64,000 nucleotides of DNA from Amphiscolops sp. MND2022. Its lineage: Eukaryota. The stretch's first letter is position 1. The number at the start of each line of letters is the position of its first letter. Where the stretch lies: assembly GCA_964187785.1 (NCBI GenBank), contig OZ076409.1, positions 50,594,001 through 50,658,000 of the forward strand, written 5' to 3'. The notes beneath the pieces were generated by a model that saw only the letters and a list, made by a program, of their open reading frames with translations, searched no databases and was not told the origin of the DNA. Positions 3,001-45,429 of the stretch are shown in pieces. The translations under genes were made by a program, and so were the position numbers.

Positions 3001-3248
3001 ATTGCATACCTTGGGTCGTAGGGTTTTGACGTGTTTGGGCGATGCCGTTGCAATTGTCTCGTGGTGAACCTTAGGGATTCTACAGTTGGTGGCTCGGTCA
3101 GATATGCCTCTGCAGCGTATACCACGGCCAACTCTTGTCGCAGCGTCGGGTCATTGACGCCATCTATAAAACGTTGCAGGATCTCATAACGACGCGTAGT
3201 GATAGGCTCGTCTGGGAAACCTTGGGTGCGCAGACCTTCCAATGCGTC
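1..3248 (-). CDS. pol: Rest of the single gag-pol frame of element A: knuckles, protease, RT, start of RNase H
   Basis: Manual translation in the Gag frame: CFNCGLPGHFAREC (2772-2813), CVNCGMTEHSASQC (2625-2666), LIDTGSG (DTG 2013-2021), DAYPLPRIDE, MPFGMCNA, YIDD (513-524), DTDASG near 60-85. Probably missing from the ORF track because no stop falls inside the window. Confidence 0.9.
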
Positions 3249-23057: not shown

Positions 23058-23920
23058 TTTTTTGCAGCATCGTGGTCAAAAAAGAAAGTAAATAAAAAAG
23101 CCGCAAAAAGACTCCAAATGGGAAAACTTTCTGGTTTGATGTACCTTTGCAAATATAAAAATGTTTAGTCCATGCAACGAAGGATTTCTGTCACACCAGA
23201 CACTTGCAGTAACCTATAGATCCAGCGGAAAGTCTTTTTTAAATATGCCAGTACTACAGCAGTAAGCAGCGGATTCCACGATTTCGAGCTGATCAATGCA
23301 GCGGATTCCGCGATTTTGCCTTACCGTCAACTGAAATCGCGAGAAATTATACACTGCGGTATTAGTCCCTGAATTCCACGCGGCGAATTTCGCTCTTTGC
23401 GGTTAGTATGTTTTAAAGCTTGGCCCAGGATTCCACTGCTCAAGCAGCTCAACTTTGAGCTGCACAAAAAGTGTAGGGTTATGCGTCGTAATGTAGTTCC
23501 AGACGGAATGTGTTGGAAAAATTATCATTAAAAACGACCCAAACAATTCAAAAATGGAACATTTTGACACAGCAGTTTTGTTGAGAAAATTTGCATTGAA
23601 GAAGCAAAACAAAACTAATTTCTACATTTTTGTCTCTTTTAAATTTGAAGGTTTTTCAGAAAACTTCAATTTTCTAAAAAAAACTTGACATGAATAATTA
23701 TGCGGCGAGACCTTTTTTTAGTATAAAACCGAAGTACGATAAAATTTGTGAGCAGAACGCCAGCTGAGAGATTAATTTTCTTTTCCCATATAGGACCCTT
23801 CAAAAATTTTAAATTATAATGAAAGATCAAATTCGGAAATATTAAACAAGCCTGCTACATTCTTTCATTGTTCCTTGAAAGTGAAGAAACACAAACTAGA
23901 GGCAAAGTGACACTATTATA

Positions 23921-24495
23921 AACAAGCCGGGGAACGGCATAAGTAGGCGCCATATCTAAGGCTCAAACATAGCAAAAGTACTGGGAAATTTTTTAGAGTA
24001 CCCAAAAACCCAAAAATTGGACCGAATTGGCGCGCTAAAAGACAGACCCTTTGGGATTTTTCAACATTTCTGTCGCAAAACATCAAAAAAATGAAGGGAA
24101 CCCTTTGGAGTCATTAAAAATTTTTCGCCAAAAAGTCTCACAATGCCGAAAAAACTGAAAGGGGGGACCATTTGGGATTTTTCAACATCCATTCTGTCAC
24201 AAAACATCAACAAAAGTGAAGGGGGACCCTTTGGGGACGTTTTTGTTTCGAAAAAAAAGTCTCATAATGCCGAAAATAACTGAAAGGGTCCCTTTGGTCT
24301 CGCCCCGTATTGTATGATACACGGAAAAAAGAAACAACTTCTATATTTCAGTTCCTTGTGCCAAAGTTCTGACTAATTTGGCAATTTGTAAAATTGCCAT
24401 AATTTTGGCATTCGACATGAAATGGCCAGTTCGTGTGGATTGAAAAAAAGTCACTATAATAGTCGCGTTTCACTTCATGAAGCGCCGACTAAAAA
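23921..24495 (-). mobile_element. DINE-1/Helentron-like non-autonomous element
   Basis: AACAAGCCGGGGAAC...AGTAGGCGCCATATCTAAGG at the left; AGTCGCG...GAAGCGCCGACTAAAAA at the right; internal GGGGGACCCTTTGG repeats. Confidence 0.75.
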
Positions 24496-26167
24496 TGTAA
24501 ATGGTGGAAAAGAGCTTTTAGAGTATTGACCAACTGACACCTCACACTGCTTCACGAGGATGGGGCAACATGCGCTTTTATAATAGTTAAAACATACAAA
24601 TGAAGAAAATAAACACATTCTCTCGAACAGAAAAGGATTTGAACTTGTTTTCAAAACTGCTGTCTGTTGATACAAATATTTTTCGCCAGAACTGAATAGC
24701 TTTCAAGAAGAAAACTAATGAAACAATTTTCTAGCCGTTGCAAAAAGGCTTTCATTTTCGACCAGTGAAGTTCTCTCGGCAACAAGAAAATGAAATATGA
24801 GTTGTAAAAAAAGTACTTTCGGTCGAAATTCAAGGGAGAATTTCGCCCTCCAATCAATCGTAGTCTAAGTTATAACCCGTCTCAAATCACCCTAACAATG
24901 ACAGTATATTTATTAGTTATAACTAGTAAATATTCTGTCATTTTCAAGGCGATGTCGGACGACATTTGTATTGAAATTATTATGTGGAAAAAATCTTCAG
25001 AATGCTTGAAAGAAAACAGGTGGCAATTCTGTTCCACTAATGATCAAAATTGTCCGAGGAAAAGATTTATGGCTGAAATGATTCCTCGTTGGCGGTTCTC
25101 ATTGCTAGGTATATTGCAAAAAACACAAAACAGTCCATAAACCCGCCAAATGTCTATAAAGAACATAGCGACAACTGAAATTTATGATAAACAGAAGTGA
25201 GAGAAAAAATCAAAGTTACATAACTGCTCAAAATTAAAAATTGATAACGAATATCGTTGGTACTGAATAACCGTCAGCGAAAGCAATTAGTCGTGCAGCT
25301 GGGTAAAGACTCTTTTTCTGGTGTCAGAAATTGAATGCAGTGTTAGTTTCTAGATAGCATTAATCAATTATGACATAATTCAGTTCAAAAAAGTTCTGGT
25401 TCCTTCATAACGGAGCAAAACACCGTAGATAAACGCCTAACTGAAAAAAATAGGTGATACTCCTTGCAATCCATGCATACCACAATTAAGTTTGTTCGCA
25501 TGCAGTATATGATACGGTATGAGATTGGATTCGACCAACTGCTTTCAACATGGAAAAGCGTGGCAACGCATGCGAACAAATGCATGAAAAGAAATAAAAT
25601 ATCAGTCGAATTGACTATGATGATGCAGAGAGCAAAACAGCCCTTTTCTTAAGAGAGTTACAAACTTTGTACCCGAGGGTTCTTTGTTGCCTGATACTAC
25701 TGAATTTCTGACAATATTAATCATTGTCGGATTGTGGGTTAGAATACCGCTCAAAATTAACTTTTTTAGTGAACAAATGTCATCCCAGCATGATGGAAAT
25801 ATAATCTACTAAATACCTGTAATGTAAATATTATGTCTTATGTACTTAGATATGGGCAATATGGAGTCATATAATAAGAGCCATGGTTGTGAGCAACCCT
25901 ACGTTACTTGTACCTTAATCCCTTCCCCCCTTGAGTGTGAGTTATATATATTTACTTAATACTGAGCGCTCTAGTTCCGGTGTCCGCATAACTGATCTTG
26001 CCTTAAATGGCCTTAAATGTGCTATATTTCATGAATATTGGTTAGTCACGACAAGGGAGAGAAGTGTTCCGGTCAAGCTGGACCGAGAGATGTAGAAACG
26101 ATGAAAGCTGTAACTTCTACTAGCTCCCCGCCTCAGAGTTTGTAGTTGTGACAAATTCCACTAAATT

Positions 26168-27052
26168 CATCACAAATTCATCGTCGAATTTGGTGACGAT
26201 GCTGACCTGATTTGAAATTTCAGTTGGATCCATCGGCGGATTTAACGGTGCTTTTAACCAAAGTTCATCGCAATCCCATCCTCAAAAATTGCGAGTGAAC
26301 AAAGCATGTGACTGTATACTCAGATTTCATCATAAATCCATCAGCGGATTTAATGGGATTTATTTTAGTAAAACTCATCTTTAATTCATCGCGATATCTC
26401 ATTTAGAAACTCCTGAATGTGCTTCTCATTTCTAAAGAACAGTAACTCATCCTTTATTCATCGTATTCACTAGTATAGAAGGGAAATGAGAAAGTACATC
26501 CTTAATCCATCCTAAAAAAGAGTGAAAGTGCTGGTTATCTGATTTGCTTAGTAAACCCATCCTTAATTCATCTTGATTTCGTTCGTGCTGAAAATTAACC
26601 ATTTTAGTGGATGAGTTCATCCTAAACTCATCGCTAAATTGAATTGCCTTAGTATTTGGTGTTTTAACTGGTGAGTTCATCCTAAACTCATCGCCAATTT
26701 GTATTGCTTTGGTATTTGCTGTTTTAACTGACAAGTTCATCTTAAACCCATCGCCAAAAATTCACTTGTGCTAGAATTAGCGTTTATCGACTGAATTCAT
26801 CCCGAATTCATCGTCATTTTAATCTGTGCTGGAAATTGGCAAATTATACGTGGAGTTCATCCTTTTATCATCGTCAGTTTAATTTGTGTTGATTTTCGAG
26901 CGAGAAAGACCACCATTCATCGCATTTTCATCCAGAGCTAAACTAGACTTGAAAATCAGCAAATATTCTTACGAGTTCATCGCATTTCCATCTTCAATTT
27001 TTAAATCATTGGTTTTGGCGCTAGAATCAGCGGAAAACATCGTTTTCCCATC
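26168..27052 (+). repeat. Array of 15 CATC-N7-CATC dyads in the 5' LTR (mirrored at ~43244-44130 in the 3' LTR)
   Basis: Dyads start at 26168, 26266, 26328, 26376, 26448, 26497, 26558, 26618, 26678, 26738, 26798, 26858, 26918, 26978, 27038. Confidence 0.9.
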
Positions 27053-27119
27053 CCGAATTGTGCTTTACCTTAAAATGACTTGAAATTAGTGCGTTATTGA
27101 ATGATTTGAGCTCATTTTA

Positions 27120-27362
27120 GTTGCTATAGAAACCATGATGCTACGTGCAGGCAATTGCGACATTGTAAATTGATGACTAAACACCATTAACATTAGTAGA
27201 TGTACCATGATGCGTGGCCACTTTGCGGCAGTTCACAACACCGGTCACGTGACTTACCATTTTAACACCAGCTGGTAACAGCCAATGAGAGAAGGTTGGT
27301 AAGAGATTTAGCGTTTCACCAACCGAAAAGACACGTGAACTGCTGTAATTTGGACCGCCATT
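27120..27362 (+). promoter_or_regulatory. Putative LTR promoter motif cluster
   Basis: GTTGCTATAGAAAC (RFX X-box-like, 27120-27133), palindromic GTCACGTGAC E-box (~27244), CCAAT (~27282), CACGTG (~27332), CCGCCAT (~27355). All retained in the 3' LTR. Confidence 0.45.
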
Positions 27363-27711
27363 AGCGATTACTGAGACCGAATTGCGACAAGCTACCATCC
27401 AGTTGGATAGTTCACGCCGAAAATCTACTTGAAAACATATCTCTATTTCATCTTCAGAAACTATAGAACTGAAACTGAGTAATTTCCTTGGTGCATCTAC
27501 GACTGCGATGAAAATTGGATGAACTTTCCTAACTACCTTGCTAATTTCCTTCTTCTCACCTAACGACTTACTTACTTGTACGACTTCATCTCAAACATCT
27601 CAGTTCAGATCAGTGAATTTGAGATCGAATAGCCATTTAAATAAAAAAAATACATCGAAACAGCATCTCAGATAATCCAGTCTTCACTCATAATTCTTTT
27701 CTCTCGGCTAC

Positions 27712-29217
27712 ATGAACCCAGATCAAGGTACCGAACTTAGAAGCGGTAGAGTCATAAATTCTTCGTCAGAAACATCTTCTCCAACAGATCCAGACATGGC
27801 TCCGGCGTCCGCCAATGACTCTGACAGCAACGAAACTTCAGATATCTCGTCCCAGTTGTCTGAAAGAAGAGAGAACTATGAAAGGAAGATAAATGAGTTA
27901 CAAAGCAAGTTTAGCCAACTGAAGAACTTATTAATGGCAGTTATTAGTAAAACCAATGAAAAAAACCGGCCATCGACATCGCAAAGTTCTTCAAAGCCGG
28001 TCCACACAGTGGGGCTCGACATGGTGACAGGAGCTATAGAAACCCGCTCCACCCGCCCGCCACCCAGCTTCACAAACTTCAGGAGATACCAAGAAGACGA
28101 CCCGGACGAAGAAGGCGAATCAACTCCTAGAAGCAATGAGGAACGACTACTCAATGCAATCGAGACGATCCCCCAACGGATCAAAAGCACCACCACCAAC
28201 ACGAAACTACTACAGACACACGTCCCAAATTTCAGAGGCCAAAAAGACAAATTCGTGGAATTTGAGCACCTTCTCCTCAACCACCTTAGCCCGCTCGCCA
28301 ACAAAATCACTGAGGAGAACAAACTCCACTTCTTTCAAAGCCTTTTGAGAGATGATGCAATAGAGTACTGGCAATCCATCCAGATAACGCCACTAACAAC
28401 GCTGAAAGATGTGCTCGACCTCTTCAGGAAAGAATTCGCGAAAGAGGATCTTAAAGAAGTGGCTCGCTACAAGTGGGATCAAGCCCGTTACGATCCCACA
28501 ACAGAGACATTCAGCGACTTCCTCAAAAACTTGAAAAAGACTGCGAAACAAGCCTTTGGGGATGAAGCGGATAAAATCATCAAAATGTTCTTGTTCGGCA
28601 AACTCCCAGTCGAAATACAACAAGAACTTACGATGGCCAATAAGGAGGAGAGCTCACCGGAAGAAATCAAGACATACTTGATGAGAAAGTACCAATACCA
28701 ACAGTATGCAGCGCCGCCCACGACAATTCAACCATTCAACGCAGTCACCTCCTCGGCCCCAACGACCAACACAACTACTAAACCAGCAACAACGACGACA
28801 ACGCAACCGACAGAACGAAAACAATTTGAGGGGCAATGTTTCTACTGCGGAAAGACAGGACACCGCAAAACGGATTGTCGCGCCCGACAACGAGACGAAG
28901 CAAACGGCATAAAGAAAGAGGACGCAATCCCAATGAAGAAAGTAGCTGACCCCGACAAACCAAAATACAATCCAAAGTTGGTCTGTCAGATTTGCGGTTA
29001 CACAGGCCACTCCGCAACGGATTGCAGACGACGCGTCCCCAAGGAAAGCAGCTCTGCATATGGAAAGATTCCATACACAACAAATTCACAGGACGACAAC
29101 AAGGCTAGACGACAAGATTTAAAACGACAGCAACAGCCGATGAATCCAATGCAAGCAATTACTGAAGACGACGAACAAATAAGCTACTCTGATGAAGACA
29201 TAAATCAGGGTTTTTGA
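27712..29217 (+). CDS. gag: Gag of element C (501 aa), starting inside the LTR
   Basis: Intact ORF with capsid-like VPNFRGQKDKFVEFEHL...KLHFFQSLLRDDAIEYW and two knuckles, CFYCGKTGHRKTDC and CQICGYTGHSATDC. Confidence 0.93.
   Translation: MNPDQGTELRSGRVINSSSETSSPTDPDMAPASANDSDSNETSDISSQLSERRENYERKINELQSKFSQLKNLLMAVISKTNEKNRPSTSQSSSKPVHTVGLDMVTGAIETRSTRPPPSFTNFRRYQEDDPDEEGESTPRSNEERLLNAIETIPQRIKSTTTNTKLLQTHVPNFRGQKDKFVEFEHLLLNHLSPLANKITEENKLHFFQSLLRDDAIEYWQSIQITPLTTLKDVLDLFRKEFAKEDLKEVARYKWDQARYDPTTETFSDFLKNLKKTAKQAFGDEADKIIKMFLFGKLPVEIQQELTMANKEESSPEEIKTYLMRKYQYQQYAAPPTTIQPFNAVTSSAPTTNTTTKPATTTTTQPTERKQFEGQCFYCGKTGHRKTDCRARQRDEANGIKKEDAIPMKKVADPDKPKYNPKLVCQICGYTGHSATDCRRRVPKESSSAYGKIPYTTNSQDDNKARRQDLKRQQQPMNPMQAITEDDEQISYSDEDINQGF
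28022..28033 (+). promoter_or_regulatory. Primer-binding site of element C (tRNA-Leu-like), inside the gag ORF
   Basis: TGGTGACAGGAG directly after the LTR-terminal CA; one mismatch from the tRNA-Leu PBS TGGTGTCAGGAG. LTR-LTR identity stops exactly here. Confidence 0.7.
29208..29214 (+). promoter_or_regulatory. Putative -1 ribosomal frameshift heptamer G_GGT_TTT
   Basis: XXXYYYZ heptamer immediately before the gag TGA; the pol ORF at 29214 is in the -1 frame. Confidence 0.7.
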
Positions 29218-32200
29218 TTCAGCCACGCTTTCTGCCCGCTACGAATGACACGCGCGACAAACGACTTAAGACTCAACAAACAACTCACAACCGTCCAATG
29301 AAGAAATGGCAGCCTTCAGCGTACAAACGACCAAAAGCTGATGACGTCTATCAGCGAAGACTTTCCAACGATGAAAAAGCGATGGGAAATGCACGTCAAC
29401 GCAACGGCAGCCGCTTTTCTCCACTCGCTGAAATCAACGATGAACAAACGATGAACTGGCAACAAAACACCATGAGGCAGGTGGACGATGCCAAAGAGAT
29501 GGACACCAACCATCTAGACGACGACTCGACTTCACACACAACAATCGACAAACGGCTTAGTATTAAAAAACATGCAAAACAAAGTAGTATTAACATTTCA
29601 AAAGCTAACAAACATGCAACTAAAACAGAAATTCACGTTCTTAGTCCCACTTTACATTTAAACAAGAAAGATAAAATGCTGTACGTTCCTCTTCAGTTTG
29701 ATAAATACGAAATCAACGCACTGTTAGACACAGGCGCAATTCAAAGCGCAATGTCTGAAGCAGAATTGCGAAAAAAAACAACGGCTCATCCAGAAGCCAT
29801 CCTTGAAGAACTCCCCCTTCCGAATTTCAAAATTCAAATAGCAAACGGGAACTTAGTCCCAGTGCGTAAGCAAGTCTTACTTAGATTTTACGTTGCTGGA
29901 AAAGTCTTTGAAGAAAAGTTCCTAATCCTTCCAACAAGGGGCACAATTTTAATTGGAATGTCATTCTTTGAAAAGTACTCAGTCAACTTGGACATAAAAA
30001 ATCACCTTGTCCACTTCCCCAATCACTTGATGTCCATGCAAGTTAGACAACAAAAGAACAACAGATTCAAAACTGGTTTAATTGATTTGTGTTCCAGTAC
30101 TAGAACAGTGATCCCTCCTCTCCATCAAGTGATGATACAGGTCCACAGTGACGCGGACATCTCACTTACAACTGGTAGAGTTGAGGGCTCACCTTGGATT
30201 CATGCGAAAGACGTCTGCTTGTTTCCCCAGCTTTGGTTGACCTAGATGAGGGCAAGACGACAATCCAGGTCACCAACCCGAACAACCACACGTTCACACT
30301 TGATGCCAACACCACTCTGGCACACTTTCGCATACCGACACCACATCAGGCGGCAAACATCACACCCATGCCAGTCGAACACTTGAACTTGATCACCAAG
30401 TACCCAGATGAGGCGGAAGCGGTGATCAACCAACTGTTCGTGAACCCTGACATGAAGTCAACTAAGTGGTACCCAACTCCCGAGACGTGCAGTGAGCCAG
30501 ACAAACTCACTGCAATTGAGCGACGAATCTATGATGAGATTCTGGCACTGCGAGAGCTCGAGAAGCTTGACCCGTCCCAATCCGATGAACAACGGATGAA
30601 CTTCCTGAAGAACTTCAACTGGGACGACTCGCTTCTTACTCCGTCTCAACGGTTACAGGTAGAGGAGTTGCTGGTAAAGTACAACTCCATTTTTGCTAGA
30701 CATCGTTTTGATATTGGCATGAACACTGATTTTAAAGTTAAGTTAACACCCCAACATGAAGAACCTGTTTATTCACAAAGTCTCCCTGCTCCGACAAATT
30801 TGAAGGACGATTTGCTCGTGGAGTTAGCCTTAATGCAAGAGTACGGGATTATAACTACCTTGCCTCATAGCAAATACTCATCTCCGATATTTGCTCAACG
30901 TAAACCTAATGGTAAATTGAGGATTTTAGTTGACTTGAGAAGAATAAACCACTTGATCAAAAACGATTACGGTGAACACAACCATCCCGTAACCACAATT
31001 GCTGACGCTGCCCAACACATGGCCGGGAAAAAGTACTTCTGTAAACTTGATTGTTCCCAGGCCTACCATTGCATTCCAATGGCCGATGAGCAGTCTGTCC
31101 AACTGTTATCGTTTAATTTTGGTTCTAGAACGTTTGCCTTTTTACGTCTAGCACAGGGTCTCGTAATCGTTCTTTGTCAGCATTTACAAGTGTAGTCCGT
31201 GAGAATTTGGACCCCTTGGTCAAAGCAGACCGGTGTGCTCAATATGTTGATGACATTGGAATTGCAGCACACACCCCTGACGAACTGATTCATATCCTTG
31301 AACTTGTTTTTCAGCAATTGAACAAAGCAGGTCTTAAACTTAGCATGAGTGAATGTGAATTCGGACAAAAGCAAATTGAGTACTTGGGCAAAACCATTTC
31401 TAGCACCGGTATTGCTCCCATTGAAAAACGAATAACTGATTTTCTGACCAAGTTGAAACCCCCCAATTCAGTGAAAGCGTTGCAACGTTATCTTGGTTTT
31501 GTAAACTTTTACAGGTCTTATATTCCCCGCCTAGCTGATAAAACTTGTTGTGTACAGTAATTGATCAAGAAGGACGTCCCTTTCAAGCTGAGCCAACAAC
31601 ATAAAGATGCCATTTTTGAAATCAATGAAAGTTTGTTAAAAGCAACAAAAGTGTCTCTGAAATTACCATTACTTGATAAACAATTGGTAATCATGTGTGA
31701 CGCCAGCGAACACGCTGCTGGCTATGTTTTGTTAATTGAGGATTATGCTGACCCGTCAGTCAAACAAACATACGCCCCCGTTGCATTTGGCTCTAAGAAA
31801 TTTCAGGGCGGCCAGATGTCTCTAACAATGTATGCCAAAGAGTTTTTAGCTATGCACTTTGCCTTCGATGAATTTGGCCACATTTTGTGGGGTGCGAAAA
31901 AACCCATCATTGTTATGACTGACAATAAGGCCTTGACTAGATTTTTTTCAGGCGAAGCATATCCCGCCTTCACTTTGGAATTTTTGCGATCAAACCCTTC
32001 AGTTCAATTTTTTATTAGCACATGTACCAGGAGTTGAAAATCCCGCAGCGGATTACTTATCTCGTCTTGAGATTAGACCTGAAGACCGTGTACACTTAAA
32101 ATTGACTGATACTATTCCAATTCACAGAATCGAGATCGACATCGCCTCCCGAACACCAAAACAGGAGGAAGACGAGCCTGATTACTTTCCCAAGAGCGAA

Positions 32201-34307
32201 CCACTCAAATGCAAGCGGCAGAAGGTTGTCAAAGAGATGAACTGGCACCTGGCACTGACGTGGCTCATGACGATGGGAAAGGGATGAAGTTCACCAACTG
32301 TGAGAGAACAGCGGCCTCAGATGACTTCGCGACTGACAACCAACTGACGTACCGCCTCACAGACGTGGACAAGCCGATTCAACTCTCGCAATTAATCCGT
32401 AAAGTATCATTATCACACCCGGTAATGAGTTAGGTTAGCCCCGCTGAGGGGATCGATCTAATTCAGGTCCAGAAAACTAACTGGGTTAATCAAAAAATGA
32501 TTAGATTTTTAGAAGGTACTGAAATTTTGCAACACCCAGTTAGTATGCAAGATCAGTTTTTTCAAAAGTTGCACAAAAATCGAAAACGCCTACAAGTTGT
32601 AAACGGTGTCTTGTACAGACAGTTTTTTGATCACACGGGATTGGAGTCTCACAAGCAGTTAGTTGTTCCTGAAGACTGTATTTTGAAAATAATTAGGACT
32701 CTACATAACAGCCCGGTACAAGGCCACCCTGGTTTAAAAAAATGTTGTACGAACTTCGTAAAAGATATTACTCTCCTAACTTAGCCTGTAAAGTTCAAAA
32801 AGTCCTTGACGGATGTGAAAACTGCATGAAATCTAAAAGTGTAAAAGAAACGCAACTACGTCCACCGTTACAAAAAATCTACGACCCGTGCGACGGACCA
32901 GAAAAACTGTTGGAAATAGACATCGTTGGTCCACTCCCGGCGTCGAACGGTTTTACACACATTCTGACGGCTGTTGACGTTTTTTCACGCTACCTGTTCG
33001 CCGTTCCGCTGAAGAGACCTGAAACACATTCCGTAGTCAGAAGATTACTGTCGATCTTCACGAAACACGCGTATGTGCCCAAGCACATTCTGACGGACAA
33101 GGGCACGGCGTTTACGGCTGAACTTCTGTCTGAAATCGCGAAAGCGGCTGATATTCACATCTCCCATGCCACGGTAAAGCACGCACAGACAATAGGCATG
33201 GTGGAGAGAACGCACGCGAAACTGAAAAAGATCCTTAAAATTAGTGTAAACGCAGACAGACCACAATGGGACCGCTATGTCGACATAGCAATCATGGCCC
33301 ATAACACAACGTATCATGATTCACTGAAATGTTCACCAACTGAAATTTTCCACGGCAGAACACCATACAACCCACTAGATCTGCAATTCCGAAACGCAAA
33401 CAAGCCGGCTGAAACAAAGTGCAAGGACGTGAACGAAATTCTAGACAAAATGAACTTAATCTTCAGAGACAATCTAGATAACATCATTTCCGCCTATCAC
33501 AAGTACAAAATGTACTATGATAGAAAATCACGAGCACAACCACTGAAGGTGAATGAATTTGTGTACCTACTAGATCCTAAGTACGACTCTCAGAGAAGCA
33601 AAGAAGAGTTTAAAACTTTCCATTGGAAAGGACCGTACAAGGTGATAAAAGTGCTATCCGATAGCAACTACATCATCCGCAAAGTAGGCACACACCAAAC
33701 TCAGTGCGTACATCGCATGCGACTGAGATTGTTTAAACCGGAGTTTCCGATTGATGACATCAACGTGTCTAAGCATCTTTACCCAGACACTGAAAGGGTT
33801 GAAGACACGGACATATTCGATTCGAATATTCCAACAACCGACGACGCTGATCAGAATGAGAACGAACACCTAGATCAAGACTTAGTCGAAGATGAGCCTT
33901 CAGACGAAATAGTTCCACCAGGACAAGAGCGAAACCATCCACCAGAAATTTCACCAGAAATAACCACTAGAATCGACAATCAGCAAGTAGAAACTGACCA
34001 CAATGACTTTAGACCACCTACAGTTAGATTTGGAACAGAAGACGAAATTATTCTACCGCCCCCCCGCGATGAAAGTAGAATAAGATTACCTCTGAGAGAC
34101 GAACAACACGAAAATCAGCCTCAACAGACAAACACACAAACTGAGGATGAGGAAAGGATGAGTTCTAGACCTTCTAGAAACAATCAAAGTAGGTACAGGT
34201 TACGCGAAAACCCTACACCGAAAACATACCCTGACTTCCTTATTCATGAGATTACATCAGCCAGAAACTCTCTGAGAAAGACCAACAAAGTAGACGTAAC
34301 GATTTAG
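29214..34307 (+). pseudogene. pol: Pol of element C (protease, RT, RNase H, integrase), broken by several frameshifts and stops
   Basis: ALLDTGA protease; KLDCSQAYH and YVDD (31243-31254) RT; MCDASEHAAG RNase H; HHCC-type zinc-binding region, EIDIVGP, TDKGTAF, GMVERTH, WKGPY integrase. Breaks near 30195, 31165, 31558, 31945, 32210, 32431, 32740. Confidence 0.93.
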
Positions 34308-34335
34308 CCACGAAAAACCACATTTCTAAACACAC

Positions 34336-34870
34336 GATGTGTTACGGATGAAAATTCACAAAAACGAGTCAATTACATGCAATTTCAACTTAAAACGAAC
34401 ATGAAGATGTAAAATAGATGAACAATCACTTAAAATTACATGAAATACGCAAAAAAACGAAACACGATGTAAAACGGATGAAAAACGACCAAAAAACCAG
34501 AAAAAACAACACATAAAAATTTTGAGATGAAAAAAGGATGAAATCACATGAAAATTTATCTCAGACACACGAGAGATGAAAAAGTGATAAACTTAGTCAA
34601 AAATTCGACCAATCAACATGCAATATTTACTAGCGATGCATTTGAGATGGAAAATGCCATCAGAATGCGAACGCACTCACGTTCATGCTATCATAATACT
34701 CTAGCTCGGCTAGAGGATGAAATAGCGATGAACTCGATTCAATTATTCAGAACTTACATGAAAACAATTAACGAGATGAATTTGTGATGGAAACTACCAT
34801 CAAATCGTGACCGAATTTATCGTTAGCCTGACACGATACTCTAGCTTCGCTGGAGGATGTCAAAACGACG
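34336..34870 (-). repeat. Internal cluster 1 of the dyad (GATG-N7-GATG on plus)
   Basis: Exact copies at 34336, 34406, 34466, 34526, 34635, 34716, 34775; one-mismatch copies at 34575 and 34856. Confidence 0.85.
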
Positions 34871-35145
34871 AATTTAGTCTAATTGGAAATTCGAAAATAT
34901 TAAATGACTTACGAAAACCTCCTTGTGATGGGAAACACCATCCACATAACATCACAATAAATCAGCTAATTCTCAAACAACATGTAACTCCACGAAACGA
35001 TAAAAAACCGCCGACTTTATTTCGAATCACGCAAAAATGAAATGATCAATACATGTAAGGTTCAAAGACCTGCCAAATCAATGACGTCACGAAAGAAATT
35101 GACAACTCCAAACTACATGCAATACAAATGAGCAATACACGGAAA

Positions 35146-35414
35146 TATACATGTACCGTTTAAAAAATGAACGAGATAATAGATGCAATTCACACCAAAA
35201 CAATACAAACCTAGACGAATAAAAATGAAACAAACAATCGAAAATACATGAAGCCTACTAATTTAGTTGCACGGTTTAAAAAATATAATAGTACATATAC
35301 ATGTATTGTTTAAAAAATGAACGAGATAATAGATGCAATTCACACCAAAACAATACAAACCTAGACGAATAAAAATGAAACAAACAATCGAAAATACATG
35401 AAGCCTACTAATTT
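35146..35414 (+). repeat. Tandem duplication, ~120 bp with ~150-bp period
   Basis: TATACATGTA...TTTAAAAAATGAACGAGATAATAGATGC...GAAGCCTACTAATTTA occurs twice. Confidence 0.9.
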
Positions 35415-36244
35415 ACATGCAAAATATAAGAATTGACGAAACAACCACAAAACGAATAAAGGAGTGAGCCCCCCCGGTAAACATCAGTTCATAACAAGTA
35501 AAATACCCCTATCGAAAAGCCAAAAACATTCCTTCGTGCTGGCTGGCATTTCTCTGAAAAGAGTGCTTGTTAGTTGAGGCGGGGAGCTCACAACCATATT
35601 CGGATGAAGCTTGCTGCGTTGGTTATCCAGCGGCTAGTGGATTCTCAGTTAGTTTTGTAGGGGGCTTTGTGACGACAAAGCCCTGTCCAAGTCAAGGAAC
35701 AAAAAATTTTAATAGAACATGTCAATAATGGGGCAACCCATTCAAAGGAAAACATTAAGAAAACACGCGCACATGAAACCACACGATATCACAAAACTTA
35801 ATAATTCGAAACATGCAAAGCCGTAGATGTCAATCACCCTGATTGATCAGATTAAACGTCAAATGGACAAACCCATCTCGACGTTTGATGACAAACAACC
35901 AAGCGTAAAAAATAACATGAAGACTATATATAGCTCAAAACTGAGAGATTTCATTCATCTGATAGGAGCGGAGCAGCTCCACTCACCCAGCTCTGAATTG
36001 GTACCCCATGTACCTTGCACAACGCAACGAAAATGATTAAGACACATGTACACTAAAATTCATGCAATCTCGACAACCCGACAAACGATCAACACCATAT
36101 AACACTAAAATACATGAAGAAAACACTCCGAAAACACCGCAAAATTGATAAAATACCCTCATCCACCATGAAAAACGCAATTCCCGATTAAGTTATAGCA
36201 AAATAAACACAAAAACACGCAAAATAAATATTTTCCAAAATTAC

Positions 36245-36628
36245 GATGAAAAAAAGATGAACTATGCAGCAAAATGAGCAAAAATTCGACAAGTCAAAAC
36301 TTTGAACTACAGCAAAAACAATGAACTACAGCAAATAACTCGCCAAAATGATAAAATGAAAACGCAAGATGAAAAAACGATGATCTATGTAGAAAAACCA
36401 CATAACAACACGCACTGATTCACATATAACGAACGATGTAAAAAAGATGAGAAAACAGTTTTCGCGACGTCGCTCGGCCGACTGAGGAAAACGTGATGAA
36501 AATGAGATGAAAAATCAAAACGAAGCACTGATTATCTAACTACACTTACACGAGATGTAATAACGATGAACAACATGACAAAAGTCTCCTACAAATTCTA
36601 TCAACTGAAAAGTGATGTGAAAGCGATG
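36245..36628 (-). repeat. Internal cluster 2 of the dyad
   Basis: GATG-N7-GATG at 36245, 36368, 36435, 36495, 36554, 36614. Confidence 0.85.
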
Positions 36629-39600
36629 ACCAATGAAAAACAGAGCCGCCGATTGACGCAACCTACCAAATGAACTTAACCAGTGTGAACCTAACTGAAC
36701 TCTACCTGCATTCCCACTCACTATTAACTCAAGAGAAAAACAATTTCGGGTGCCAAATGTTTAACTTGTACATAGTACACTGCCGATTTTTCCGACGCAG
36801 CGCATTTCTTCTTCTCCTCTCATGTCACTTAATGCGACATATAAAATTGGTCACCCATTTGCTAGATACAATACTATAACATACAGTAAAATAAAATAAC
36901 ATGAAAAATACAACAGTTTCAAATGAATGTGGACAAAGTACAGGCGTTAAACACCACTTTCTGGACTAGCAGCCCGCTCCCCGTTTATGCTGTACCCCAA
37001 GTTTGAATATAAGCGCAGTCTATAATCTTCGCCAGCCACAATCCCAATGTCGTCCCACAACATACTTTCGGTCAACTCGTTGAGATCGACTAAGCGCCGG
37101 TGTGACTCTGCAACTTCGTCTAGAAGAGGACCACTCACATTTTCATAGCTCCGAATACTGCTGGCAGAAAGATAGCTCACGATAATGGCACATACACCAC
37201 TCGTTACGTCGCTGCTTAAATGGCCGACTCCGTCACACAACAAAGTATTGTTACTCTGAATGCCTCCGTCCAAGCAAAATATACTTCGCAATAAATTCTG
37301 GGCACCTCGATTAGTACAATAGCACAGGGGGTCCAACACCGACAGATTCATCGCACTTCCGGTCGCCCCAGACCCACGTCGATAGCTACTGATGAATTCC
37401 AGGAAGCCACGTTCCATGTGTCCTTGCTCTGCATACGAGATTCGGCCTAACTCAACGAGAAGATCCGTAAATACCCGGATTTCGGCCAACAGAACATCTT
37501 CAGGAACAATATTGAGACTTGGCAGACTGAACACACTCCGAACAAAGGACAGATCATCCCGGACTCCTGGCAATGCGCTGACATTTTTCACTACAGTCAA
37601 AATGAAGACTGGCACTCGAGACATATCTTCATCATAAAGACATCCGCCCGCATCCACTTCGTTATTGGCACGAAAACTGTCAATCAGGACTTGCTGTTTA
37701 ACCTCGGAGATGGCATAACTCTCCACGTCCACGAACAACCAGGAACGCGTATCCTAGGCTGCTGGCAATCGGTCATCATCAACCAGAGTCGAAATCAGTT
37801 CTCTTATGAAACTGGCACTTTCCACCGCCCAGTAACAACTGCGTACTGAAGAAGCACCAAAACTCTTCTCGTAGGAATTCACCACTGAAACATTAAGGTA
37901 CAATAAATTCCACATGAAACTTGACTTGTATGACCACCCCCCCCTCACGCAAACGAAAATACCAACCTCACTAGAGCCCATCTAGAAGTGACCCGACAAG
38001 ACTTCACCAGGAATATAACAATTACTAACGAGCACGGTAAACTAGACTGAGCGCCTGAAGCCTGATTGGAATCCCAATCTCTGCACGCAAGGTCAGGTCA
38101 AGTGTGTCCAATGGTCCATCTCCACTGGCAAATCGCAACAGACACACAATGTCAGCCCAGTTACTCCTCAATTCCTCGCACACATCAGCGAGCGTCCACA
38201 CAAATACCTCACCAGTAAGAATCGCCTAAATTGTAAATAACATCATATTAATTAACTGCAACCACTGTGAAGTTCACTACAAATCGCCCCCTCAACACTC
38301 CGTTCACACATTTCTACACATAGATACCATCACATCATGAAATCATACGTACTTGCAGCAAATGCGGACACGCCAACAGCAAAGGATCCTTCACGAATCC
38401 TTTCAAGCGCTTCTGAAGATGGTTAAGAACCACATGGATATCAGTCCCACCAAGCACTTGACCAGCCACATCCACGATCGTCCGACTGACATCCGATAAC
38501 GTGAAGGATTTCACGTCCACGAGGCCAAGCCCAGCGGTGCTTCGGAACAGTCCACCCAGCTGTGGCAACGCATCACAGCACAGTCCAAGTGGAACAGGCT
38601 CTCCGAGCATGCAACACCACATGTTAACCAGCCAAGTGATCACTCGACCCTCCCAGTCACGAGCCAGATTGAAACAGAAGACAGTGTAGTGACTGACTCC
38701 GTCCATGCCACACACTGCGACCGTACCAGTCACTAGCCCTCCAGTCACTGTCAGATGGAAACTGCTGTACTCACTATTGCTCCAGATGGTAATCAGTCTC
38801 CGCATTACGTACGGCCACAAGCCAAGCAGAACAACGCTCTAAAATCAACATAAGGTCTTTCGAAACCATACATCATAATATTATACCGCCCCCCAACCCT
38901 CCGTTTCAATAGTAAACAATAGAAAATCCATACTCAGTCGAACGTAACAGAAAACGCAAAAATCAAATTTCCCACCATCACGTCGGACAACGCGCAAGTT
39001 GCCCCAAACAAGACCGCATGTTGGGGATCCGACGACACCAGCACTTCCCACAAATTAGCAACTCCACTAAAGTGACAATCGCGGTACAGAGCGTCGACCA
39101 CGAAGCACACAAATAAGCGCACAGTCTTTTCTGGCCAGTCTTCCCCCTCTTCGTCTTCCCCCCACACAGGCTGCCCAGCCCCCTCCAGTTCAAATACTTC
39201 CAAAACACTGAGTGACGGACAGGTCTCAATGAAGGGCACAGTCACCCCACCTAAGATTGCACGACACTCGGCGCTCTCTTCATTCGTCATGAGCGTTCCA
39301 TCGCGTCGCCGCAACGAAGCCCACGGTGTAAACGGATCACACAATCCTGACGGTGATGACGCAGTCCTCGGCAATGTTCCATAAAGGTGGTAATGCCTCG
39401 GCTGCCCACCTTAACGTCTCTCTTGCACATTAGGCATCGCACATACGACATGCGCGACTCGTGATTGCGTGCATATCCTAGCGCCAGCCCGCAGTATGGA
39501 TGATCAAACCATCCGGATTTGATCACCTTCTTTCCTGATAATCACAAAAAAAACAAAATGACATCATTACAAATCATCATACACAACGACTAAAATCATC

Positions 39601-39668
39601 TGTTACACATCCGCAAAATCGAAAAATGCAAAAGTAAAACGTAAACATCAAAAACGTTCACCCGGAGT

Positions 39669-40096
39669 GATGAAAACATGATGTAAAATAATATTTTCAT
39701 TGGAAATATAAGCGAAAACGAAGAAAAAACGAAAAGATGAAAAAGAGATGTGTTTGCAAGCCACCAGAACAGGAAATTGAAACTTTAAAAGACGAAAGCC
39801 TCGAAGGATGAAAAAGAGATGTATAGAACGACTTTGAACCAAAATTGAGATATTTTAGAGCGAAAATAACTTAACGATGAAAAAGAGATGTAAACCGAGT
39901 AAAACGACGATAATAGCTGAAAACGAACGAGAAAAATTCAAGGATGTAAAAGAGATGGAAAGTTCTAGAAAATGACCAGAAAAGTGAAAAGGAAGAAAAA
40001 CGCCATATTTAATACTTTTAACGATGAGAAAGTGATGGAAAATGAAAACTGCAGAAAACCATATAGTGAAAACAGAAAAACGATGGAAAATAGATG
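39669..40096 (-). repeat. Internal cluster 3 of the dyad, inside intron 4 of the cargo gene
   Basis: GATG-N7-GATG at 39669, 39736, 39807, 39876, 39943, 40023, 40082. Confidence 0.85.
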
Positions 40097-40612
40097 GACA
40101 AGAAGAAAAACGTTAAACCACGCTAGTGAAAGTGAAAACGAAAAGAGAAATGAACAAAAGTTACCGATCAGATACTTCACAGGGTTAAAGCTGTTTAGGT
40201 AACCTGGTAAACGAGACGCAATGGGCTCGTCGTCGGAGTCCACCAGACTGGGTCCCATTGGAGACGTCTCAGCAGTCGCAGGAACCAGACCGGGAACAGC
40301 ACCCTCCAGAGCAGGCTCAACGGACAGAGAATCACCAGCAGGGACATCCTCGACTGCCTCAAGAAGGGTCTCAGCGCTGTCAGTTGATGGCACGTCAGAC
40401 TGCTCAACGTCAGCCTCCACAACTTCAGGGACGCTAGCAGCTGGCGAAGAGGGAGCAGCCGAAAGAGTTTCCACAGGAGGATCGTAATCTGTGGAAGTCT
40501 CGCCAGTTTCCACAACGGCCTGAATGGACTGGTCAACAACAGCCACGCAGGCATCGACTGCCACATCCACAGGAGTGACGACGGCACTGACTCCTGCGTC
40601 TACAGTGACACG

Positions 40613-40652
40613 AGGAGGAGGAGGAGGAGGAGGAGGAGGAGGAGGAGGAGGA
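40613..40652. repeat. (GGA)n microsatellite encoding poly-Pro in cargo exon 4
   Basis: Direct GGA run; PPPPPPPPPPPPP in ORF 39965-40774. Confidence 0.9.
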
Positions 40653-42185
40653 CTTCGAATTGCTGACTCGTGGTCCAGGAATCGCTGGAAGTTCGGCGAA
40701 AGCACCGACACTGGGGCACGTGCCACTGGGGAGCTAACCGCGCCCAGGGACAAGTCCTGGAGGAACGAGGACATCTCTAGTGGGGGAGGCCCTCCTTGAG
40801 TGACAGAGTCAGCCTGCGGCGCACCAAAGTCACTCGTTTTATACCCACAGAGTAAGTGATAGGGAGAGGCCTTGGGGCGTGGATGGGAGTCCGGCCTGAA
40901 AGAAGAAAACAGAAATCAGACGACGACGAATGATGAAGAAAGTGCGCGTACACCGCGCGAAGAAAGAAAACAGGAAAAAAAGTCATCAAAAATTCATCCT
41001 CAAAAATGGAATTCGCAGCGGATCAGCCACGAAGGACTGTGAATGTCCATGACACATCCCAAATTCATCTTAAAAAATGAATTTTATAGGTAATCGACCG
41101 CGAAGGGCACTACATGCAGATGAGATGTTTATATCGGAATTACATCGGAGTGTCCGGACGATGCCTTAGTACAGACGGAAAGTGAAAAGGAGTCAACTCA
41201 CTATACTGCTGGATGCTATCTCGTAGCATGTCCCGCATGTGGCGATCATACCACCCGAAGGTGATGCTACCGAGGGAAGCATACCAAGGATAGTGATCTA
41301 AACATCAAACGGAAAGAGTCAACATCTGAAGGGACCGGAGATGAGAAATGAAGAGATTGTAGACTGAATTGAAGATCTGGAAGGACAGAACTTACACTGC
41401 GAAAGGTACGGGACGTTAGGAGACTGACCAAGCGGTTGATCAGGTTGAAACTGGGGTACGGGAGCTGCTGCTTGAACTTCAGGAGTCTCTTGAGGCGGCA
41501 CGGTCTGCAAGGTAGTCAGCTCAGAAATGACGCCGACAGAGTGAACTGAGTCCGCTAAAACCAAGACGCGTCTTCAGTACCTAATTGTTTCCTGACCCGT
41601 TTGTGAAAAAAAAGAAAAATAGTGCACTTACTTTCTGTAGCTTCAGTCTCTGGAAGAGAATAAACAGAGTGGATGTCGGACATCGCTGTAGGTTTGCAAA
41701 ACAATCTGAAAAGGAACGGAAGAGAGTGAAGAAAGGAACGAAATCGAAGAATCTGAGGACAAGAATTTGATCAGTAATTAAATGGCCTGATCAACCACGA
41801 TTGCGAGATACAAATTCACGGAAAATTTCAAAGAGCGCGAATGCGGTTTGAGTGCCAGGACAAACCAAGTACTTGAAATTCAGAAGATGAAAAATCGATG
41901 AAAACTCTCCGATTTCAATGACTGCCTACACTTTTCTTCACAGTTCAACCAACTTGACAATTTTCTCTGAAAATGAATCGCCCCCCAGAATTTGACTACA
42001 AAAGCTTCAAGTATTTGGTTTTGATGACAGCTGCCAGTCTCAGATCAATACCGACGAAGTTGAGCGGAAACGCGCAAAGGAAATCGTGGCGATTTTCAAA
42101 CCGACTTGACGGAAGATGATTCAAGGATGAGAATGTTTGTTGACAACCAGTTGGATTTCCTTCAGTTCAGAAAATTCAGTTTCAC

Positions 42186-42430
42186 CCAATCAGAATAAAG
42201 CAAGTGGTTGCTATGGCGACGATTTCATCTCTTTCTCATCGCCGAGAAATTCAGACAGCGGAAGCGACAGCTACGGTTGCTATGACAACAATTCATCTCT
42301 TTCCTATCGCGGAAATTGACAGAGCGGCGGCGCCAGCAGTCTGTTAATTCAACATCGATGTCTCGCTGAGTAAACAATTCATCGTTCATTCATCTCAAGA
42401 AAACTTCGGCAGACAAGAAATGGCGCCGAT
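42186..42430 (-). promoter_or_regulatory. Putative promoter region of the antisense cargo gene
   Basis: Two X-box-like palindromes, GTTGCTATGGCGAC (42207-42220) and GTTGCTATGACAAC (42276-42289); CCAAT at 42186; AAATGGCG near 42418. Lies 0.5-0.7 kb upstream of the predicted ATG. Confidence 0.4.
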
Positions 42431-42857
42431 TCATCGCCAAATTGTCAATGAAGCTACCAGAATGTTTACTTAGCCTAGGCGGCCTGGGGAAATCTTTTCA
42501 CCAGGAAATCGAGATTTTCACCGAAAACAATCGACAGACCGAGCTCCCATCAAAAGCATGACAACCAATAAAATGCAGATCTGCGGACATTCGATGGGCC
42601 AAGAATTAGAGTTGCCGCGTCGAAATTCTTTAACCGAAATCACCCAGGATGAAGCCAGACATGACGAGTGCCGAAAGTCCTCTTCTCAGAGAAGGTTTAC
42701 ACAGGGCAGAACAAACGAAGGAAATGCCAATTCAGAACAAACGAAGAATCAATTTTCTCCCTAACCAAACGAAGGAAACAGTCGAAGCCAACGCCGAGAC
42801 AACCATCATCTGCACATTTGGCCCCTGCACTCTCAGTCCAAATCCCGCCTCGGGGAG

Positions 42858-45088
42858 TGTCATGCCAGCATGATGGAAATATAATCTACTAAATACCTGT
42901 AATGTAAATATTATGTCTTATGTACTTAGATATGGGCAATATGGAGTCATATAATAAGAGCCATGGTTGTGAGCAACCCTACGTTACTTGTACCTTAATC
43001 CCTTCCCCCCTTGAGTGTGAGTTATATATATTTACTTAATTTTGAGCGCTCTAGTTCCGGTGTTCGTATAACTGATCTTGCCAATGGCCTTAAATGTGCT
43101 ATATTTCATGAATATTGGTTAGTCACGACAAGGGAGAGAAGTGTTCCGGTCAAGCTGGACCGAGAGATGTAGAAACGATGAAAGCTGTAACTTCTACTAG
43201 CTCCCCGCCTCAGAGTTTATAGTTGTGACAAATTCCACTAAATTCATCACAAATTCATTGTCGAATTTGGTGACGATGCTGACCTGATTTGAAATTTCAC
43301 TTGGATCCATCGGCGGATTTAACGGTGCTTTTAACCAAAGTTCATCGCAATCCCATCCTCAAAAATTGCGAGTGAACAAAGCATGTGACTGTATACTCAG
43401 ATTTCATCATAAATCCATCAGCGGATGTTATGGGATTTATTTTAGTAAAACTCATCTTTAATTCATCGCGATATCTCATTTAGAAACTCCTGAATGTGCT
43501 TCTCATTTCTAAAGAACAGTAACTCATCCTTAATTCATCGTATTCACTAGCATAGAAGGGATATGAGAAAGTACATCCTTAATCCATCCTAAAAAAGAGT
43601 GAAAGTGCTCGTTATCTGATTTGCTTAGTAAACCCATCCTTAATTCATCTTGATTTCGTTCGTGCTGAAAATTAACCATTTTAGTGGATGAGTTCATCCT
43701 AAACTCATCGCTAAATTGAATTGCCTTAGTATTTGGTCTTTTGACTGGTGAGTTCATCCTAAACTCATCGCCAATTTGTATTGCTTTGGTATTTGCTGTT
43801 TTAACTGACAAGTTCATCTTAAACCCATCGCCAAAAATTCACTTGTGCTAGAATTAGCGTTTATCGACTGAATTCATCCCGAATTCATCGTCATTTTAAT
43901 CTGTGCTGGAAATTGGCAAATTATACGTGGAGTTCATCCTTTTATCATCGTCAATTTAATTTGTGTTGATTTTCGAGCGAGAAAGACCACCATTCATCGC
44001 ATTTTCATCCAGAGCTAAACTAGAGTTGAAAATCAGCAAATATTCTTACAAGTTCAACGCATTTCCATCTTCAATTTTTAAATCATTGGTTTTGGCGCTA
44101 GAATCAGCGGAAAACATCGTTTTCCCATCCCGAATTGTGCTTTACCTTAAATTGACTTGAAATTAGTGCGTTATTGAACGATTTGAGCTCATTTTTTAGT
44201 TGCTATAGAAACCATGATGCTACGTGCAGGCAATTGCGACATTGTAAATTGATGACTAAACACCATTTACATATGTAGATGTACCATGATACGTGGCCAC
44301 TTTGCGGCAGTTCACAACACCGGTCACGTGACTTACCATTTTAACACCAGCTGGTAACAGCCAATGAGAGAAGGTTGGTAAGAGATTTAGCGTCTCACCA
44401 ACCGGAAAGACACGTGAACTGCTGTAATTCGGACCGCCATTAGCGATTACTGAGACCGAATTGCGACAAGCTACCATCCAGCTGAAAATCTACTTGAAAA
44501 CATATCTCTATTTCATCTTCAGAAACTATAGATCTGAAACTGAGTAATTTCCTTGATGCATCTACGACCGCGATGAAAAATGGAGGAACTTTCCTAACTA
44601 CCTTGCTAATTTCCTTCTTCTCACCTAACGACTTACTTACTTGTACGACTTCATCTCTAAAACATCTCAGTTCAGATCAGTGAATTTGAGATCGAATAGC
44701 CATTTAAATCAGTAAAATACATCGAAACAGCATCTCAGATAATCCAGTCTTCACTCATAATTCTTTTCTCTCGGCTACATGAACCCAGATCAAGGTACCG
44801 AACTTAGAAGCGGTAGAGTCATAAATTCTTCGTCAGAAACATCTTCTCCAACAGATCCAGACATGGCTCAGGCGTCCGCCAATGACTCTGACAGCAACGA
44901 AACTTCAGATATCTCGTCCCAGTTGTCTGAAATAAGAGAGAACTATGAAAGGAAGATAAATGAGTTACAAAGCGAGTTTAGCCAACTGAAGAACTTATTA
45001 ATGGCAGTTATTAGTAAAACCGATGAAAATAACCGGCCATCGACATCGCAAAGTTCTCCAAAGCCGGCCCACACAGTGGGGCTCGACA
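42858..45088 (+). repeat. 3' LTR of element C (2231 bp)
   Basis: Near-identical to 25778-28021; preceded by a short purine run GGGGAG (candidate PPT). Confidence 0.95.
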
Positions 45089-45120: not shown

Positions 45121-45429
45121 AAATGCACTTTTTGATTTTTCGGTATCCGAAGCATTTGAGATTTTGTCAGGAAGGAGGGATCGAATCTAATTGATTTTTA
45201 GATTTTATATCTTTTGAAATTGAATGGAAATAGAAACTTTTTCTGATTGAAGTATAGCTAGAGGAAAAACTCCAGACCTTATTATATTTTTGTTAATAAA
45301 GAGTCTGAAGTACCTGCTACTATATTATTATGTTCATATTGTACACACTACTCAGTAGAGAAAGGTAGATTGTGAAAAGTTTTGTACAACAATTCCTTTT
45401 GGCATCAAGAGAATATAACATGGCGCACT

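Follow-up and report, generated by a model that had tools for sequence, protein, structure and literature searches.

Self-encoded, sequence-specific regulators are already established for plant DNA transposons (VANC and TnpA). Retroviral trans-activators such as foamy virus Tas and the HTLV antisense proteins are encoded by the element and act on its U3 and on an internal promoter. Here we describe a Ty3/gypsy retrotransposon that encodes a candidate protein and also contains its precisely delimited candidate target, the gapped motif CATC-N7-CATC (hereafter the dyad), so that the question of self-regulation is testable with a single binding assay. As with Tas and the HTLV proteins, the candidate accessory protein is proposed to act on U3 and an internal promoter. 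The proteins are unrelated, however, and the viral systems have few response elements whereas the present element carries at least 50 phased dyads.

VANC and TnpA each bind the transposon that encodes them, at clustered copies of a motif specific to the family that lie outside its coding sequence (PMC5735166; bioRxiv 10.64898/2026.08.24.746577). The likeness to VANC comprises a transposon-encoded accessory protein and a short family-specific motif in introns and other non-coding parts, which VANC binds and which the protein of the present element is a candidate for binding. According to the VANC paper, VANDAL motifs multiplied through tandem repeat formation, as in the LTR array described below, and related VANDAL families differ in their motif (PMC5735166). 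VANDAL is a plant Mutator-like DNA transposon, whereas the present carrier is an LTR retrotransposon. VANC is further described there as having DUF1985/DUF287 domains, recognising a contiguous motif of 8-9 bp and removing DNA methylation (PMC5735166); the present system, in contrast, has a gapped, helically phased dyad that also occurs in pol, a BED-like finger and undepleted CpG. With TnpA of Spm it shares a candidate transposase-derived regulator and dense family-specific motif clusters in cognate copies, and the text on TnpA presents the loss of catalytic residues as a route from transposase to regulator (bioRxiv 10.64898/2026.08.24.746577). The TnpA-type regulators treated in that text belong to plant CACTA and MuDR DNA transposons and derive from the element's own transposase, whereas the present gypsy would have taken its gene from another element class; the words 'retrotransposon', 'LTR' and 'BED' do not occur in the text as available. 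In its proposed way of working the system is like VANC and TnpA, and it is a member of neither.

Two further systems are comparable in part. The BED domain of Hermes binds a 4-bp motif cooperatively and with exact phasing, and needs the AT-rich stretch that follows it (PMC10368747). A 4-bp motif with an adjacent AT-rich stretch, paired sites and strict phasing recur here, with the finger as the candidate binder. The Hermes sites are AAGT motifs near terminal inverted repeats (TIRs) and serve cut-and-paste transposition (PMC10368747), whereas the present element has no TIRs, its sites are direct repeats and its candidate catalytic triad seems to be incomplete. Gypsy elements with antisense accessory genes in their 3' region have long been known, without a target assigned to these genes, and the same source also mentions HTLV antisense genes (PMC11963269). 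Like the present element, the plant gypsy elements Retand and Grande have a long stretch of sequence separating pol from the 3' LTR, contain antisense ORFs with predicted DNA binding, and carry tandem arrays particular to each family. They differ in their domain, TRP28 (PF04195), described in that text as restricted to flowering plants and having no known target motif, and in their arrays, which are ordinary tandem repeats as opposed to an element-wide phased dyad (PMC11963269). The accessible part of a review of giant transposons (PMC6431247) describes extra ORFs of animal gypsy elements, none of them a transposase-derived regulator. Our search of mainly open literature, by titles and abstract openings, found no BED- or transposase-derived accessory gene and no self-encoded anti-silencer in an LTR retrotransposon.

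The dyad-bearing gypsy element

The window (the whole 64-kb stretch of DNA analysed) contains a 19.3-kb plus-strand element (25778-45088) with two LTRs, gag, pol and an antisense gene. Its terminal repeats, zinc-knuckle gag and protease-RT-RNase H-integrase order in pol identify it as a Ty3/gypsy LTR retrotransposon. The 5' LTR (25778..28021, 2244 bp, TG...CA ends) contains the dyad array and a promoter-like cluster, and gag begins within it; it differs from the 3' LTR (42858..45088) by 45 substitutions in 2227 aligned bases. The element is flanked by ACAAA and ACAAT, which agree at four of five bases as a target-site duplication. A primer-binding-site-like TGG start (28022..28030, plus strand) lies immediately 3' of the 5' LTR, and a short polypurine tract (42852..42857, plus strand) precedes the 3' LTR. 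The promoter-like cluster (27120..27340, plus strand) consists of what we take to be an X-box-like site at 27120, GTCACGTGAC at 27244 and a presumed CCAAT motif at 27282.

The gag gene (27712..29217, plus strand, 501 aa) has its ATG within the LTR. Its frame opens about 300 bp inside the LTR and crosses the LTR end and the primer-binding-site-like sequence (27712-28030), so that the 3' LTR holds a 103-codon gag start. The pol gene (29196..34307, plus strand) occupies several frames in the present copy. By exact protein look-up in 90% clusters, gag belongs to a cluster of 182 entries and pol to one of 1482 entries including fragments, all from ENA. A 150-bp tandem duplication (97%), without a dyad, lies in the 3' region of the element (35145-35432). 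The CpG observed/expected ratio is 0.92-1.08 across the window, with no depletion anywhere.

The preliminary description reported 15 dyads at 26168-27052 and nine (26558 to 27038) exactly 60 bp apart; both statements are correct, and all 15 are on the plus strand, with an extra minus-strand dyad at 26089. Enrichment over background, on which that description had made its reading depend, was found in the window: its two strands carry 71 dyads against 1.52 +/- 1.22 expected from 100 dinucleotide shuffles of the window (maximum 5). All but one of the 71 fall within the gypsy element (70 dyads, 25700-44800). Seven is the sole enriched gap among gaps of 0-19, the others occurring 0-4 times per strand in the whole window. 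With one LTR counted the element has 54 dyads, 36 of them internal, and the dyad is its top gapped 4-mer repeat (54 versus one in 44.7 kb of flank). Paired CATC is enriched, whereas the half-site hardly is, being at about background level (lone CATC outside dyads, 3.1-5.0 per kb in the element versus 2.4-3.6 in the flanks). The half-sites and the 7-nt gap had been called invariant. This is true of CATC and of the length of the gap, which alone is fixed; the gap sequence varies, with a mean identity of 42%. An A/T core is present in the N7 of 43 of the 54 dyads, and T is preferred at positions -1/-2 of each half-site.

Dyads are found in the LTRs, in three internal non-coding arrays and in linkers of pol. 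Seven lie in the coding DNA of pol (29370, 29439, 29487, 29787, 30584, 32272 and 34146). Internal array 1 (34336..34953) has seven minus-strand dyads (gaps 70, 60, 60, 109, 81, 59) and one on the plus strand. Internal array 2 (36245..36628, minus strand), downstream of the antisense gene, has six (gaps 123, 67, 60, 59, 60). Internal array 3 (39597..40096), which sits within intron 1 of the antisense gene, has seven on the minus strand (gaps 67, 71, 69, 67, 80, 59) and one on the plus strand. The array was thus rightly placed in the LTR, but the motif extends well beyond it: the dyads are an element-wide, family-specific tag, of which the LTR array is one part. A second gypsy element in the window (45-5414, minus strand), unrelated and with a pol 24-29% identical to that of the dyad-bearing element, has no dyad and served as a control; it retains a long gag-like ORF (3249-5414) and remains of pol (45-2054).

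Origin, phasing and family restriction of the dyads

The 45-bp spacers of the LTR array (26168..27052), earlier regarded as mostly dissimilar, are in fact homologous. In the nine units at the exact 60-bp period, the 45-nt spacers have a mean identity of 40% versus 28% after shuffling (0 of 5000 shuffles reach 40%), one neighbouring pair is 80% identical, and TRF reports a period of 60 with 2.5 copies. The mean identity and the 80% pair indicate that the LTR units are old tandem copies. The earlier view that the array is not a plain minisatellite stands in so far as the dyads are under selection, and fails in so far as the units did arise by tandem duplication; with a minisatellite origin followed by selection, the two readings are compatible. 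All eight dyad columns are invariant across the nine units, with just one other invariant column, and none of 5000 runs of a simulation at the same divergence on a star tree (a simplification) yielded as many as eight invariant columns. These columns bear on the idea of a neutral, decaying minisatellite, or of DNA bending or nucleosome positioning that needs no reader. Such an idea would suit the homologous tandem copies and the A/T core recurring once per helical turn. It is barely credible, and already largely refuted, given eight invariant columns at 40% spacer identity, the identical dyad and gap in non-homologous arrays and coding linkers, and the fact that bending requires no invariant CATC.

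The second copy of the array, in the 3' LTR, has one substitution in each of two of its 15 dyads. Between the two LTRs the dyads have changed at 2 of 120 bases and the spacers at 12 of 765. Since the dyads have drifted as fast as the spacers after insertion, selection must have acted during replication; the inserted copy itself shows drift and no sign of ongoing selection on its dyads. As had been described, the array ends just before the promoter-like cluster, at a distance of 68 bp (cluster starting at 27120). The sequence GATGAGTT-CATCCTA-AACTCATC (26608-26632) forms a local palindrome in two adjacent LTR units and is the only spot in the array capable of a hairpin. A CRISPR-like repeat-spacer array was ruled out: only eight bases are invariant, the interior is 42% identical and the spacers are homologous.

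Spacer identity within each internal array is at shuffle level (482, 145 and 497 of 1000 shuffles reach the observed value). Array 1 is slightly similar to the LTR units (35% vs 31% shuffled) and the other two arrays are not. Despite the non-homologous spacers, six gaps of 59-60 bp occur across these arrays. Outside the 59-62 class there are 17 gaps below 130 bp (48, 48, 49, 67-72, 80, 81, 98, 109, 123). They share the phase of 60 if the helical period is set at 10.0-10.5 bp, a range picked after the gaps had been seen (p values of 0.001-0.003), and this phasing holds when each gap value is counted once. The fixed gap, the conservation, the helical phasing and the lack of an RNA fold are features expected of sites on double-stranded DNA. 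The preliminary description had suggested selection for phased protein binding; such selection, on double-stranded DNA, is supported at the sequence level by the invariant dyads, the phased gaps, the background-level half-sites and the unfolded RNA, while the interpretation was incomplete in missing the tandem origin, the spread of the tag over the element and the candidate reader that the element encodes. An action in RNA, through UCAU-type sites of host proteins or LTR-internal CAUC/GAUG pairing, seems very improbable by comparison with a site on DNA. CATC does mostly read along with whatever is transcribed locally: it stands on the plus strand in the LTR and on the minus strand within the antisense unit, intron included. 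Nevertheless, the rigid 11-bp period of the half-sites and the helically phased gaps are properties of the double helix, six pol dyads lie on the non-transcribed sense, the A/T cores of plus and minus arrays are not complementary, and a folding test found no RNA structure in the array (z -0.89).

In coding DNA the dyad leaves a shadow in the protein. Translated in frame, a minus-strand dyad gives D-[ADEGV]-x-x-M, and all five such peptides found by script in pol of the present copy are perfect dyads in the DNA; a sixth dyad, at 32272, straddles a frame break. The gag peptide DAIPM matches the pattern, yet the DNA there has no dyad. The pol of an intact relative contains the peptide six times versus 0.7 expected. 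With proteins standing in for DNA and cluster members being non-independent, the rates per 1000 aa are 3.4 and 6.7 in the two own pol clusters (14 members listed each). The P0272 clade, with 15 members at 70-89% identity, has a rate of 3.6. Four clades whose RT is 73-77% identical have rates of 0, 0.7, 0 and 0.8, and a set of 112 pols that are further removed has 0.38. In the P0272 clade D and M still stand 16 residues apart while the rest of the linker has diverged, and additional sites peculiar to this clade occur elsewhere in pol. Judged from these proteins, the shadow marks the element's own pol family and the nearest clade, and not more distant gypsy clades. In conjunction with the data above, the tag is real, selected, element-wide and family-specific. 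In a sister pol clade (P0275, P0276, P0389) the linkers are rich in D-[ADEGV]-x-x-x-M and D-[ADEGV]-x4-M (counts of 36 and 14, 25 and 20); one site of this type is a conserved RT motif. These peptides may reflect a dyad whose gap has a different length.

Family restriction is central to the main rival of a self-encoded reader. In that explanation the dyads are sites of a host transcription or chromatin factor, dimeric or with two fingers, the U3 array is a tandem-duplicated enhancer and the antisense gene serves another purpose. Multimerised host-factor sites in U3 are common among LTRs, the present array adjoins a promoter-like cluster, phasing and conservation would fit any dimeric binder, and a restriction to one family is also expected if one lineage gained the host-factor site. 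We nevertheless consider a host factor unlikely, if a serious contender. Only one dyad occurs in 44.7 kb of flank and none in the other gypsy of the window; the coding shadow is missing from sister clades whose RT is 73-77% identical; the sites reach beyond the promoter into pol linkers, introns and the 3' region, in the manner of VANC targets; and a candidate DNA-binding gene travels with the gypsy family. Even if a host factor were responsible, a phased dyad preserved in coding linkers would be an unusual cis-code.

The antisense gene and its predicted protein

A minus-strand gene of five exons occupies part of the 8.5 kb that separates pol from the 3' LTR. Its four introns are GT-AG with compatible phases, and gene calls in relatives share the same exon borders at the start and end. 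Exon 1 (40165..40774) encodes a Pro-rich, acidic and likely disordered segment. Exon 2 (38976..39534) encodes a BED-like C-x2-C-x16-H-x5-H zinc finger and a helical segment, and has a frameshift near 39.3 kb in the present copy. Exon 3 (38353..38838) corresponds to a likely RNase H/DDE-transposase-like segment and is followed by exon 4 (38030..38225). Exon 5 (36947..37884) encodes a helical C-terminal part; it has an in-frame stop near 37755 in the present copy and one dyad at 37630. The other 28 of the 29 dyads of the 3' region are outside the antisense exons (p 1.6e-4), eight of them in intron 1 and six, on both strands, in the likely promoter region of the gene (40984..42394). This region also has two sites at 42207 and 42276 that we assume to be X-box-like; the four matches to this motif in the window are all at places of LTR-promoter or antisense-promoter type.

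Relatives of the gene form 13 clusters by word search and 86 representatives by profile search. The gene stays open in many diverged subfamilies, which differ down to 21-40% identity. An alignment of 28 sequences, reaching down to 21% identity, shows the four finger ligands conserved in 27, 28, 27 and 23. The R and the G of a pair that precedes the predicted helix are conserved in 27 and 26; W or Y is present upstream of the finger in all 22 sequences reaching that position. The best Pfam match of the finger is zf-BED (PF02892; E-value = 0.002, 18.5 bits versus a gathering score of 20.6), found in four of 28 members at E-values up to 1, and a profile match to the ZBED2 finger (2djr) has an E-value of 0.49. 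Atlas features, at scores of 0.86-0.87 that are below 0.9 and so leads only, connect exon 2 to zf-BED and the Spin-doc/GTF2IRD2 fingers, and exon 3 to a single DDE clan in ten of ten family matches (MULE, ISL3, Mutator). Exon 3 has no Pfam, NCBIfam or PDB sequence match. PDB sequence searches gave nothing significant, and NCBIfam and Rfam gave no match. AlphaFold models of the finger exon (mean pLDDT 56, below 50 over the finger) and of the last exon (mean pLDDT 54) are poor, and a structure search with them gave no clear fold match.

The exon order fits the hAT transposase layout as we assume it to be, judged by eye. Against the same assumed layout, again by eye, the second catalytic Asp (end of the fourth strand) is present in 12 of 12 cluster members, and the Asp of the first strand is absent in all nine that reach it. 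The hAT C-terminal dimerisation domain (PF05699) is matched by none of 22 relatives. The antisense protein is likely a dead DNA transposase. No exon or relative matches Pfam DUF1985/DUF287 of VANC or TnpA, and TRP28 (PF04195) has no match in the antisense gene.

The accessory gene is carried by the gypsy family, as VANC/TnpA-type systems require. Clusters of the finger exon and of the last exon pair by subfamily, with 5, 5, 3 and 9 contigs in common. Of the listed contigs with the family's own gag/pol, 10 of 56 also carry the gene, whereas those with other gypsy clades do so in 4 of 162 cases (Fisher p = 2.7e-4; both sets are similar in mean length). Contigs were matched with their length as the label, up to 15 members were listed per cluster, and multi-contig proteins were represented by their longest contig alone. 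The count omits the contig of the window itself as well as P0276, P0303, P0380 and P0390, and any contig also present in the own list was taken out of the control set. Contigs with a pol more than 90% identical to that of the window bear accessory exons just 39-59% identical (clusters P0162, P0170, P0175). This mismatch may mean that the accessory gene evolves faster or has been exchanged, or that pol and accessory exons belong to separate elements lying close together.

The linkage also bears on the notion that a nested hAT/MULE-like DNA transposon left behind the antisense gene and, from its subterminal repeats, the internal arrays, and that neither does anything for the retroelement today. 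A transposase-like gene between dyad arrays of opposite orientation (34775 minus, 40984/41055 plus) would agree with it. We hold such a relic to be highly improbable, however, because the dyads are also in both LTRs and in the pol linkers of two clades, the gene is open in many diverged subfamilies and shares contigs with the own gag/pol, and no terminal inverted repeats paired with a target duplication of 8 or 9 bp flank the gene. A nested DNA transposon with TIRs was rejected for want of any TIR-TSD candidate there.

A search with the finger alignment found no related loci in metagenome or viral contigs, and a more diverse alignment offered no stretch of sufficient conservation for a scan. 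A scan for three dyads returned 43 viral and at least 121 metagenome stretches; none of 160 loci from it matched the element's proteins, and 20 of the 160 have divergent spacers. Seven were inspected, and the sole regular array among them, L127 (143-2270), was rejected as a relative: it is of CRISPR type, with a 26-nt repeat that contains CATC-N7-CATC by coincidence. The others are simple or coding repeats. A metagenome locus (L072, 2381-2502, reverse strand) without protein match to the gypsy element has three tandem units of TTCATC-N5-TTCATC at 60-61 bp, with a spacer identity of 47%.

Proposed function of the dyads

The explanation that we favour, and to which we assign an even chance, is that the dyads are a family-specific self-tag bound by the element's own antisense finger protein, which would regulate the copies of the family in the manner of VANC and TnpA. 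Two BED-like fingers would each read one half-site of 4-6 bp, (T)(T)CATC, and both half-sites, which are offset by 11 bp and enclose an A/T core, would be bound jointly on one face of the helix. Such joint binding would explain why single half-sites are not enriched. Dyads separated by whole turns (about 49, 60, 70 and 80 bp) would seat several dimers on one face, and the DNA carrying them would be bent or wrapped. The reader would be a captured DNA transposase that lost catalysis and kept DNA binding, and we propose that its antisense orientation lets the introns survive the RNA stage. The dense U3 array would act on the LTR promoter just downstream, and the dyads at 41-42 kb on the promoter of the antisense gene itself, so that the family regulates its own copies in trans. 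New dyads would arise through tandem duplication and through point changes in linkers; they would be kept, we propose, because dyad-bearing copies replicate more. By analogy with the known systems, the protein more likely keeps copies active than represses them. Since CpG is not depleted, a VANC-type route through DNA demethylation is unlikely.

The same protein, Gag or integrase might instead bind the dyads for a step of replication unrelated to transcription, such as assembling or protecting cDNA, pairing its ends or steering integration to existing copies. Sites throughout the element and a 60-bp phasing suited to a large assembly speak for such a step, and hAT BED domains form phased nucleoprotein assemblies on subterminal repeats, according to the Hermes report (PMC10368747). 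The densest array, however, lies 0.4-1.3 kb inside the LTR, directly upstream of the promoter-like cluster, more sites flank the antisense promoter-like region, and there are none at the LTR tips where integrase acts. This makes a replication step quite unlikely in our estimation.

Beyond regulation by a self-encoded finger protein, a broader scenario is possible but doubtful. A gypsy lineage may have captured and disarmed a cut-and-paste transposase, made its BED finger a private transcription or anti-silencing factor, and placed phased sites for it even in Pol linkers; finger and motif would then diversify per family, giving many matched protein-site pairs. If true, self-regulation of transposons would also exist in a retrotransposon outside plants, and in a genome that shows no visible CpG depletion, and a transposase would have passed between transposon classes for regulatory use. 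It would also help to account for the high copy number (182 gag and 1482 pol entries, including fragments).

Other repeats of the window lie outside the element. A block of about 2.36 kb is present in tandem triplicate at 47963-53720 (95-97% identical), with a shorter match at 45122-45421; it has no dyads and looks like a decayed retroelement fragment. A dispersed repeat occurs in both orientations at 15641-16313, 23920-24495, 45706-45861, 57106-57451 and 63255-63476, its copies being 70-85% identical with an internal periodicity of 54-124 bp. A Tc1/mariner-like transposase fragment (DDE_3, E-value = 1e-5) is located at 62051-62602.
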